Position numbers and translations under genes: made by a program. From Eledone cirrhosa (Eukaryota): a stretch of DNA of 64,000 bases. Each line of letters starts with the position of its first letter. Position 1 is the stretch's first letter. The notes under the pieces are model-generated. The model was not told the DNA's origin. It did not search any database and saw only the letters and a program-made list of their open reading frames with translations. This document shows positions 9,003 to 62,042 of the stretch, piece after piece. Location of the stretch: NCBI GenBank assembly GCA_964016885.1, contig OZ024752.1:45942001-46006000 (forward strand). Direction: 5' to 3'.

Positions 9003-9198
9003 TAAGAAAAAGTATGACCCCGACGGCAGTGCTGAAGCCGTTTCGACAGCTATTTCTCGACTCAGAAATAGCTGTCGAAACGGCTTCAGCTCTGCCGTAG
9101 GGGTCATACTTTTTCCTATTACCCACTCTACTACCCTAAGTATTGAGTACTCTGGTGCGTTATGGTCCAACTGGTTCCTTGCCACAATTCCTTCGTTA
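9003..9198 (+). mobile_element. Family A fold-back element (half-hammerhead, PLE-pLTR-like) in (TA)n
   Basis: ~55-bp inverted arms around loop cgactc (9058-9063). GAA-ACGGC...GCCGT-A-ggggtc, then conserved tail ...tattgagtact...ccttcgtta. Confidence 0.8.
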
Positions 9199-9559
9199 TA
9201 GATATATAGATATATTCCAACACCAGTATTTCACCGTACTACCTACACTATATATATATATATATATATATATGTATTCTCTGGATTTCCAATCTTTGGA
9301 TTGGTGAAACCGTCGGTAACAGCAATAGAACAGGTGATTATTTAAATCGTTTTTTAATTTATTTAAGGAATTGTTTGATAATTGATTGCTCCGCTCATTT
9401 TTATATTGTTCTGGTATCTCAAATTAGTACCATCGAACCACAACTATTATAAACACCTTGCATATTTCTATAGGTACCTAGTGCCTGTTGAAATATCCAT
9501 ACCCTTTTATATATATATATATATATATATATATATATATATATATATATATATATATA

Positions 9560-9868
9560 GGGCGGGTAAAATTCCCGAGATCCATGGACGAGTTCTCTCC
9601 AGCCGTCTCTGTCCCTCATTATCGCTGCCATGTCCTGCGTCTCCAACAGACCAGTGTCTGTCCTTAGGGCATCAACATACGTTAACCTTGGTCTTCCTCT
9701 TCCAGTGTGTCCATGCAGGGGCTCCCACAGGAGCATGTCTAGCTAACCTCAGTCTCCTCTGTGTCACTTTCGAGCTCCCGTACAGCTCTGAGTTCTTCAT
9801 CCTCAGTGTATACTGATTAATGTTCAGAGCCATCCTCAGCATTCTCGTGTAGCACCCATCCACCATCT
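9560..9868 (-). mobile_element. RTE-clade LINE 3' ORF fragment (frameshifted)
   Basis: DGCYTRMLRMALNI...RRLRLARH...LLWEPLHG..GRGRPRLTYVDAL..DTG...MRDRDGWR, typical RTE post-RT C-terminus. Confidence 0.85.
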
Positions 9869-10024
9869 AAGGCTTGTGTGTATATACATCATGTGTGTAT
9901 GTATATATGGGTACACATGTAAAGTATGTGTGTGTACGTTTATGTAGGCAGATATGTACGTCGTGTATGTTTATGTTTGTTTGTTTTTTTGTCAGCATAC
10001 ATGAGTGTATTATGTAATTAGCTC

Positions 10025-11190
10025 ATATATATATGTGTGTGTATGTGTATGTATGCGTGTGTATGTATGTGTGTATGTGTGTGTATGTATATATATGTGT
10101 GTATGTGTATGTATGTGTATGTATGTGTGTGTATGTATGTGTGTATGTGTGTGTAAGCGTGTATGTGTGTGTATGTTTGTGTATGTGTGTGTATATGTGT
10201 GTATATGCGTGTATGTGCATGTCTGTATATGTATGTGTCTATGTGTATATATGTATGTGCATGTGTATGTATGTATATATGTGTATATGTGTATATATGT
10301 ATGTGCATGTGTATGTATGTATATATGTGTCTCTGTGTATATATGTGTGCGCATGTGTATGTATGTATATATGTGTCTATGTGTATATATGTATGCGCAT
10401 GTGTGTGTATGTATATATGTGTCTATGTGTATATACGTATGTGCATGTGTATATGTATATATGTGTCTATGTGTATATATGTATGCGCATGTGTATGTAT
10501 GTATGTGTGTATGTGTATATATGTATGTGTCTATGTGTATATATGTATGTGCATGTGTATGTATGTATATATGTATATATGTGTATATATGTATGTGCAT
10601 GTGTATGTATGTATATATGTGTCTATGTGTATATATCTATGCGCATGTGTATGTATGTATATATGTGTCTATGTGTATATATGTATGCGCATGTGTATGT
10701 ATGTATATATGTGTCTATGTGTATATATGTATGCGCATGTGTATGTATGTATATATGTGTCTATGTGTATATATGTATGCGCATGTGTATGTATGTATAT
10801 ATGTGTCTATGTGTATATATGTATGCGCATGTGTATGTATGTATATATGTGTCTATGTGTATATATGTATGTGCATGTGTATGTATGTATATATGTGTCT
10901 ATGTGTATATATCTATGCGCATGTGTATGTATGTATATATGTGTCTATGTGAATATATGTATGCGCATGTGTATGTAAGTATATATGTGTCTATGTGTAT
11001 ATATCTATGCGCATGTGTATGTATGTATATATGTGTATATGTGTATATATCTATGCGCATGTGTGTGTATGTATATATGTGTCTATGTGTATATATCTAT
11101 GCGCATGTGTGTGTATGTATATATGTGTCTATGTGTATATATGTATGTGCATGTGTATGTATGTATGTATGTGTATATGTGTGTATGTGT
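10025..11190. repeat. Degenerate ~44-bp TG/TA tandem repeat
   Basis: Unit gtgtctatgtgtatatatgtatgcgcatgtgtatgtatgtatatat. Confidence 0.9.
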
Positions 11191-60026: not shown

Positions 60027-60191
60027 CCTTATTTCCCGGCGTGGAAGACGCTACTTTTCTCCCCCTAAAATAAGTCTCAAAAATCTACCATGCAACCTGG
60101 AGGCCGAAGATTGTTTATTATTTTTCAAATTTTGGGTTGTCAAAATTAGGGTGGGTCCTCGATGAAGCGTCTTCGGCGCCGGGAAATACGG
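60027..60191. mobile_element. Tc1/pogo-type MITE
   Basis: TIR ccttatttcccggcgtggaagacgct / agcgtcttcggcgccgggaaatacgg; TA flanks. Confidence 0.75.
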
Positions 60192-61863
60192 TAATTACAC
60201 CAATGGACTAAGGGGTATATATATATATACATATATATATATATATATACATACAAAGGTTTATTGATATTTATTTTATAACATCAAAGAAGAAGAAACA
60301 CATGCCGGGTATGTTAACCAACCCGACTGCTATTTCTACGGCGTTACTTAGGGGCAGTTTTATAATTGATGGATGCCGGAGCCCGTCTCATCTCCAGGTC
60401 TGAGTACAGCAAATTTATTGTAGAGAAATATAGATAGCTTGGAAGTGAGACAGAGATATAGAGGAAGAATTGTCCCCAATATATGACTAGTACATTTTTT
60501 ATCAACCTTGAATGGATGAAAGACAATGTTGACTTAACGATAGATAATCTACTTTCTAGTTTTAGACACAAGTCAAGCAATTTCAAAGTATTTAACTACT
60601 GGTACTTTATTTTATCGACCCCTGAAGGAGCAGTGGCGAAGTTGACCTCGGCGGGATTTGAACTCAGAACCTAACGATTGATAAAAATCGATAAAATTCG
60701 TATATGCAGGATACATTCATACATATAGTTTCTTTTTAAGTTAGAGATCTTCTCTCAGATATTGTAATATTATATGGCATATAGAGAGAAACTAACGACG
60801 ACTGACTCATCAGCTTCCAACTTATGCACATACACACATGCACGCAATCACACACACACATGCACGCAATCACACACACATGCACGCAATCACACACACA
60901 CATGCACGCAAGCACACACACACACATAGAAGCACATGCACACTCACTCACACACTCTCTCTCTCTCTTACTCTCTCTCTCTCTCGAGAGAGGAATAAAT
61001 ATCCGGACGGTTGTTCATATATTGTCAAAGTTCTTTCGTCACACATTCTGTGACCTCGACGAAAGAACTTTGACAATATATGAACAACCGTCCGGTTGTG
61101 GAACCAACCAACCAACCGGACATTTATAAAAAAAAATTTAAATTTATAATTTAATTTATAATAAATTAGAGTGAAATATCTGGTGCGTGTGTTTCTTATT
61201 GGCAACATGACCCTCCCAAAGTATAACAATATATATATATAGTGTAAATAATATGCAAGCTGGTGTACGTGTGATGATTACAAAGTGTCTCTATTGTTTC
61301 GTGTGTAAACATGTATTTAAAATGTGACAACATTCTTTCCAAGAAAAACTATATAGCTACATCACTCACACATCCTTTCCATGTACACACACACACACAT
61401 ACATATATATACACATATATACACACACATCCTTTCCATGTTTGACACCACACACACATACACATATATACACATATACACACACACACCTTACCATGTT
61501 TGACACCACACACACATACATATATATACACATATACACACACACACATACATATATATACACATATACACACACACACCTTACCATGTAATATGTTGCA
61601 ACGTCTGGCACTATATCATATATACATGCATTTAGTTGAATGAAATATACGTTAATATGGTGTAAGGTGGTGTACTACCATACTTCAACTTCATCGCTAC
61701 ACCACACTGTATGAATTAATATATACCCCACATAAATATAGGCATATGTATACATTTTTGGGGGACACCCTGTGTGTGTGTGTGTGTGTGTGTGTGTGTG
61801 TTTATATATATATATATATATACGCTATTAAACAAATGGAAACTATATTTATAAAACCATATC

Positions 61864-61929
61864 TATTTCATTATACATATTTCAGGGATACCATATTAAA
61901 AATATGGCATGCCTTCATCAGATAAAATA
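61864..61929 (-). ncRNA. Type I hammerhead ribozyme (family G)
   Basis: tattttat-CTGATGA-agg c atgccatatt ttt aatatggtat c cct-GAA-AT atgt AT-A-atgaaata; 8-bp stem I, long stem II. Confidence 0.8.
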
Positions 61930-62042
61930 CAATATATAAGCAGTTTTATAAATAAATTTGACGTATATATATATATATAGCTGTCGAAACGGCCGGAGCT
62001 CAGCTGTCGCGGCCTTGACTCTACTATATATATATACGCATA

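Follow-up and report, generated by a model that had tools for sequence, protein, structure and literature searches.

The stretch of Eledone cirrhosa DNA considered here, 64,000 nucleotides of contig OZ024752.1 (positions 45,942,001 to 46,006,000, hereafter the window), carries nine copies of a short dispersed repeat, Family A, at the positions given in an earlier note on this DNA. We number the repeat from the A of AGTCC in a natural long copy (+1); GAAA then begins at +19 and the hammerhead ribozyme would cut after +41, while the last base of the inner TAT is +61 and that of the outer TAT +141. The 80 nt between the two ends are equivalent to the 'tail' of Penelope-like elements (PLEs). Five copies are fold-backs turning at about -3 to +6, one turns in stem III of the ribozyme, one is a pair of non-overlapping arms, and two are single arms to the inner site.

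As the earlier note had described, the five fold-backs reverse just upstream of GAAA and re-copy 55-60 nt as far as the same TAT. At 9002-9199, an inner-site arm (9002-9062, minus strand, +1 to +61) is joined to a tail arm (9063-9199, plus strand, +5 to +141). The copy at 13088-13297 consists of a tail arm (13088-13224, minus), about 17 nt of filler and an inner arm (about 13242-13297, plus), and that at 33196-33404 of an inner arm (33196-33255, minus) and a tail arm (33259-33404, plus). At 42014-42234, a tail arm (42015-42153, minus) is followed by about 20 nt of filler and an inner arm (42171-42234, plus), with a 13-14 bp target duplication at the flanks. The filler at this turn (42154-42170) corresponds to a short motif from a different dispersed repeat, present about 20 times in the window, which suggests a capture from another RNA or complementary DNA (cDNA). 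The fifth copy (54493-54689; tail arm 54493-54628, minus; inner arm 54628-54689, plus) is predicted to form a near-perfect hairpin of about 57 bp (-133 kcal/mol, z -19.6). A sixth fold-back, beyond the five, lies at 57593-57738 and turns inside stem III; it joins a short inner arm from about 57595 (minus) to a tail arm at 57624-57738 (plus, +29 to +141). The head-to-head pair at 24130-24238 belongs to a diverged subfamily, and its arms, an inner arm (24130-24180, minus) and a tail-only arm (24192-24238, plus, +95 to +141), do not overlap. The single arms lie at 38466-38520 (plus), running to the inner TAT without a partner arm, and at 61978-62028 (plus), a degenerate arm to the inner site.

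In the representative copy at 33196-33404, the plus strand at 33278-33311 holds the 3' half of a type I hammerhead, i.e. the end of stem II, GAAA, stem III, the UC cleavage site and the 3' strand of stem I, without the core and without loop II. None of the window copies has CTGAnGA among the matches listed, in agreement with the earlier note, and a tblastn search found no pieces of the parent open reading frame (ORF) in the window.

The exact fold-back junction pattern has 12,392 matches genome-wide, a lower bound, compared to 0 for the reversed control; the fold-backs of the window are thus not due to chance. A DNA search of the 3.0-Gb genome gave 599 candidates, and most of the 40 scored have a second inverted arm. 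In 464 kb not selected for the repeat (window included) 24 Family A clusters were found. Short-read contigs of related copies, which may derive from the same sample, bridge the turn, which argues against an artefact of long-read assembly.

These repeats are almost certainly 3'-end stubs of a PLE, as the earlier note had supposed, and long copies with a complete hammerhead and an ORF for reverse transcriptase (RT) and a putative endonuclease exist elsewhere in the genome. Copies were picked by their 3' flank, some of them extending upstream, and with this upstream sequence as query we obtained copies with a long ORF. Locus L132 (G000:C3:309613001-309623000) is a near-full copy. It comprises in order (TA)n, the inner end, about 1.2 kb of 3' untranslated region, the ORF, a 5'-truncated pseudo-long terminal repeat (pLTR) with tail, a head-to-head truncated copy reaching the outer site, and (TA)n. 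The ORF is split into two frames and starts at +232, well past the ribozyme; from its ATG to the inner end there are about 3.4 kb. Long inverted pairs are also present at L133, L138, L104, L113, L114 and L119.

The protein of L132 (P0001) has 221 relatives; Pfam and PDB sequence searches gave no match. Its predicted model (pLDDT 88.9) has TERT structures as the three best PDB fold matches (E 3e-9 to 2e-8), and the YxDD motif is invariant across 93 aligned proteins. At the C-terminus, VIY...YIG followed by R, E and N motifs was recognized by eye, while Pfam reported 0 families and no GIY-YIG chain was among the whole-model fold hits listed. Taken together with the N-terminal frame, the protein exhibits DKT, RWR in place of RWK, a CxCx5C linker, and CxxC and CxH around a conserved E and N, and it lacks CCHH. 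By these protein motifs the parent element is of the Hydra-clade type, in line with the insertion into (TA)n but not with the generally short length (<3 kb) of that clade. PLE features found are the TERT-like RT, a partial tandem pLTR with an inverted truncated copy, the tail at one end and the hammerhead in the pLTR. Beside a long copy at L101 and L137 (G000:C2 near 409.72 Mb) there is an intron-less frame of 478 codons, named by eye as sugar-transporter-like, which is possibly a retrocopy.

In long copies the minimum-energy fold is a type I hammerhead, with stem I formed by ACCCC and GGGGU, the core UUGAGAA and GAAA unpaired, stem III, and UC at the cleavage site. Stem II is long in this predicted fold and loop II comprises about 40 nt. 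The folding energy is no better than that of shuffled sequences (z -0.09), and no hammerhead scored in an Rfam search. Among 45 long arms the core is mostly TTGAnAA, with a minority of CTGAnAA; the latter corresponds to CUGAnAA with a C3/A8 mismatch and is probably a weakened ribozyme. This form occurs in part of one abundant subfamily (L209, L220, L243, L244). The 5' half predicted by the earlier note, gacccc-CTGAnGA, has 0 matches genome-wide; the actual 5' half is ACCCC-TTGAnAA. CTGAnGA at 8-36 nt upstream gave 18 matches, which on reading turned out to be fillers, the partner arm or ribozymes of other families. A ribozyme on the opposite strand was likewise dropped, as three of its 5 matches were read and proved to be fillers.

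The two arms differ by a sharp rule. One arm with and one without the tail were found in 50 of 50 fold-backs of the pattern set, and over all sets 107 of 111 pairs combine one inner (+61) with one outer (+141) arm, two of the remainder having two tails and two none. L068 is a rare case with the tail on both arms and 5' ends within loop II. Both ends meet (TA)n at TAT, as previously noted: the inner end is ATA in 96 of 99 cases, a count partly built in because the location rule accepts ATA, and the outer end is TAT in 94 of 99. Among the copies with impure flanks, nine of 41 have a readable target-site duplication (TSD), which is of 14 bp in six cases and of 13, 16 and 26 bp in one case each. 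Shuffled pairings gave a mean of 0.7 overall (at most 4) and 0.25 at 14 bp. The 14-bp duplications start with TAT and finish with ATA, so that both target strands would present a 3'-ATA end.

The 5' ends are sharply placed as well. Most of them lie at -3 to +8, within loop II of the ribozyme, and almost none between -6 and -45; breakpoints are thus far from random, as the earlier note had expected. At 29 loci chosen by the 3' flank alone, tail arms end at -5 to +9 in 15 cases, past -10 in 4 and at +19 to +119 in 10; at 0 of the 29 loci does the 5' end fall on the ribozyme cut site, which was therefore rejected as its origin. We inspected by eye the first 100 of 13,159 arms reaching +1, a pattern whose first letter is biased toward long arms: 43 traverse loop II and the remaining 57 stop. 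Of the latter, only 3 go beyond -3, and 13 have poly-T fillers. The end of loop II is carried exactly by 4,722 arms, and 41 of the 45 fetched run beyond the core; only one of these 45 long arms runs into the ORF. The sequence at the edge, TTAGTCC or TCAGTCC, or TCATTY four bases upstream, fits the initiator (Inr) consensuses YYANWYY and TCAKTY (PMC4581360), and an internal pLTR promoter has been described for Penelope (PMC2377424). We consider it somewhat probable that the edge is a transcription start, as predicted from these motifs.

Other signals around the edge gave little. A splice acceptor was rejected, since 18 fillers of at least 10 nt show no common upstream exon and the 3 with a 10-mer match to the 3' untranslated region all differ. 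No allele separates 5' from 3' pLTRs, long and short arms sharing alleles. With the A at -3 as start, a Drosophila motif ten element matches by eye in 9 of 12 positions at +18 to +29 (p about 0.005 for a preset position), but this is a post hoc match and is not relied on. A downstream promoter element sought by eye at +28 from either candidate start had no match.

The variants that the earlier note took as copy-specific are subfamily alleles, which are present also in long copies bearing the whole ribozyme. The two arms of a pair share them in 76 of 94 pairs compared to 18% for random pairing (13 of 107 pairs with indels were dropped), which fits either two cDNAs primed separately or one cDNA folded back on itself. 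At L020 and L180, arms from different subfamilies are joined. The 5' reach of the arms was compared in 74 pairs, with the tail arm going further in 29, the no-tail arm in 19 and a tie in 26; in L132 and L133 the no-tail arm is longer by more than 1 kb (1.2 kb in L133). In 8 of 135 pairs, including the window copy at 24130, the arms do not overlap. Nine single inner arms were listed; one of them goes back to an internal deletion, and two represent a single segment that was duplicated. The same two single arms recur at a distance of about 15 kb, at L091 and L092-L093 (G000:C12 near 45.90-45.92 Mb), indicating a local segmental duplication. At the joins, the ends of the arms would often have been tailed with A, trimmed or supplied with filler, and microhomology amounts to 0-4 nt. 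In L022, L023, L024 and L031 the filler consists of a run of A and then a run of T, which would be expected if A-tailing of both cDNA ends had preceded the join. In L016, L040, L041, L043 and L046 a Family A arm is fused directly to a second family that also bears a hammerhead, which points to the joining of cDNAs across families. A difference between arms with five and four G (22 loci) was considered as a sign of different templates; it is a selection effect and neutral (counted by eye, 96 arms have five G, 55 of them tail and 41 no-tail arms, and 2 loci have both).

At least ten other fold-back families lie between (TA)n tracts in 0.97 Mb of the genome, many of them with a tail on one arm (e.g. 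at L008, L026, L056, L063, L065, L133, L138, L147 and L155, and in the window near 61830-61960). Several keep the whole hammerhead core on both arms. Family B turns about 0-8 nt and family C about 80 nt upstream of the intact core, and in families B, C and D the furthest common end is near an Inr-like A. The turn upstream of an intact core means that the ribozyme is not a general determinant of where the sequence reverses. The proposal of the earlier note that the ribozyme sets the turn therefore fails as a general rule, although in the predicted fold of Family A the edge does adjoin the tip of the extended stem II.

In our view, these insertions are best explained by a staggered cut in (TA)n at which each target strand primes a cDNA of its own, both cDNAs running off the start of the template and then being end-joined; we give this reading as a whole a probability of about 0.55, a value that reflects the mutual support of its steps. 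The cut would be staggered by 14 bases, and RT would start internally at two sites, at each of which a UAU would pair with one of the 3'-ATA target ends. The element's own mRNA, starting at the initiator within loop II, would be the likely template, so that RT would run off it after no more than about 60 and 140 nt. The cDNAs would then often be A-tailed, trimmed or filled at their ends and joined head to head. We propose that the absence of the ribozyme core reflects its position upstream of the RNA start and not a structure that halts RT. Rarer read-through RNAs would lead to the same arrangement of two arms, with arm lengths of hundreds to thousands of bases. The separate priming of two cDNAs is, taken by itself, quite likely. 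For another PLE it has been described in vitro that both strands are cut and extended, that two internal RT start sites define the tail and that uncleaved RNA is used (PMC11167929).

Several observations weigh against this reading. No readable TSD was found in 32 of the 41 copies with impure flanks, and five of the cases with 14 or 16 bp come from a set selected for impure right flanks. The allele sharing between arms requires that both cDNAs derive from one RNA or one source locus. For the Poseidon element PAc from Anolis, the RT start is reported as non-homologous to the cut DNA (PMC11167929); here both sites end in UAU, and the 3-nt match to the target ATA is our inference. Inr-like heptamers are common, a perfect one being expected in 12% and one with a single mismatch in 36% of 5-nt windows. 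The signal for a cap-derived G is weak: G precedes the +1 A in 17 of 22 arms, about half of them explained by the partner arm, and among the 57 stopping arms there are only 8 G versus 4 A at this place. Poly-T fillers may be mistaken for template T at 0 to -2, which leaves an uncertainty of about 4 nt in the edge. The start in D. virilis lies upstream of the ribozyme. The comparison of families is post hoc, with n=10 for two of them and with subfamily divergence blurring family B. Finally, the edge coincides in the predicted fold with the tip of the extended stem II as well, the base at -3 being the first after the apical tetraloop and +1 a bulged A.

This last point, along with the weak cap signal, would also suit two separately primed cDNAs whose edge is not a transcription start but an uncapped RNA end or an arrest of RT at the stem II tip, caused by a nuclease cut in the apical loop or by a bound protein. 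We regard this as a possible but rather unlikely variant. Before halting, RT would have to copy stems I, III and II along their entire 3' strand, arms beyond -5 mostly continue (41 of 45), and the turns of families B and C show that the loop II tip is no general stop. The self-priming preferred in the earlier note, in which one cDNA folds near stem II, copies its own strand and integrates its second end via TAT microhomology, would fit arms with shared alleles, and a hairpin of 4 bp with a 6-nt loop would account for some of the junctions that recur; self-priming has also been proposed for PLE palindromes (PMC3846280). However, priming on stem II should keep the loop, and a loop II 9-mer was retained at 0 of 111 junctions. 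It should also make the tail arm the longer one, while either arm can be longer. Non-overlapping pairs, single inner arms, the few pairs of mixed subfamily and several junctions that are loop-less blunt palindromes speak against it, too. Self-priming is thus disfavoured and seems improbable to us, even though later one-sided deletion could mimic some of the contrary features.

One-sided central deletion is established for palindromes. It could explain unequal or non-overlapping arms if the stubs were remnants of longer inverted-repeat insertions that lost their centre by palindrome instability, and long inverted copies do exist. Such a loss offers no reason for a sharp edge at -3 to +1 with almost nothing at -6 to -45, and the poly-A/T and foreign fillers at the turn resemble fresh cDNA ends; we therefore consider it very improbable. 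The very high copy number, the stereotyped size and the recurrence of a few junction sequences could point instead to a palindrome that moves as a unit, as a fixed non-autonomous master of MITE-like (miniature inverted-repeat transposable element) or retrozyme-like kind. But the junctions are diverse; identical ones occur in more than one subfamily and with the tail to the left or to the right, and five of six common subfamily haplotypes are found also in long copies with loop II. The idea of a fixed master, which would have contradicted the reading in the earlier note, is largely refuted and hardly credible. A MITE or fold-back DNA transposon was likewise rejected on account of the variable centres, the asymmetric tail and the retroelement parent.

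If two separately primed cDNAs running off an RNA start within loop II are the correct explanation, a promoter in loop II would spare the 5' end of the mRNA from self-cleavage, with the 3' copy staying whole. As the mRNA cap would be just about 60 and 140 nt away from the UAU sites, only run-off stubs would result from ordinary mRNA, which would explain why full-length PLEs need tandem read-through. Near-perfect hairpins would arise as a by-product in tens of thousands and could supply double-stranded RNA (dsRNA) for editing on a large scale. It is conceivable, though we hold this only tentatively and at somewhat less than even odds, that PLEs in general use twin target-primed RT at a 14-bp cut, with two 3'-ATA primers on two fixed UAU sites, a loop II promoter and hairpin by-products as a dsRNA source.

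The element class and the layout of 'inverted copy plus tail' are already known, and both PMC8557442 and PMC11167929 treat the way in which PLE tandem and inverted structures arise as unresolved. Our literature search, which left most subscription work including older Penelope papers outside its scope, gave no prior report of the one-inner-one-outer rule, of a fixed 14-bp TAT...ATA duplication, of run-off or a 5' pile-up in loop II, or of at least 12,392 fold-back junctions. Family A offers more than 12,000 natural junctions together with three sharp rules, namely the pairing of an inner with an outer arm, the TAT...ATA duplication of 14 bp and the initiator-like 5' edge. The size and the microsatellite load of the genome, along with one named protein relative from Argonauta (37%), suit an octopod. 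For Octopus, heavy hyper-editing has been described, together with an exceptional share of loci that can form long dsRNA (PMC5625713), and the Family A stubs are a candidate source of such dsRNA.

The canonical PLE unit, consisting of a partial tandem, a pLTR, an adjacent inverted 5'-truncated copy and a tail at one end (PMC8557442 Fig. 2; PMC3846280; PMC2377424), corresponds to the layout of L132, and the stubs are its shortest form. In contrast to the canonical PLEs, most copies here are cut to about 200 bp by a sharp 5' edge and the tail comprises 80 nt instead of 30-40 nt. The TSD is apparently fixed at 14 bp, whereas PLE duplications are described as variable (PMC8557442) or as 8-10 bp (PMC3846280). 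The PLEs of the Hydra clade, which bear a C-terminal endonuclease (EN+), share with our element DKT, RWR for RWK, CxCx5C, CxxC/CxH, the lack of CCHH, the hammerhead and the insertion into (TA)n. The families described there (Craig et al. 2021, PMC8557442) are generally below 3 kb, as a tendency, compared to about 3.4 kb in E. cirrhosa, where the stub number is also very high. Like PAc (Frangieh et al. 2024, PMC11167929), Family A has two adjacent internal RT starts defining the tail, an AT-rich target and no 5' ends at the ribozyme cut. The PLE hammerheads described by Cervera and De la Pena (2014, PMC4209133) resemble ours in the U3:A8 core, the short stem I, the long stem II with an unpaired base near its 5' end and the palindromic stem III loop, and pairs of them on opposite strands 100-700 bp apart are mentioned there. 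Compared to these, loop II is about 40 nt in Family A and holds the 5' edge, and most genomic copies carry only the 3' half. Non-LTR (non-long terminal repeat) retrozymes (bioRxiv 10.64898/2026.07.22.740005) are short non-coding PLE-derived repeats with hammerhead sequence, too. As presented in that preprint, they form head-to-tail tandems with whole type I hammerheads, whereas the Family A copies are arranged head to head and have no core.

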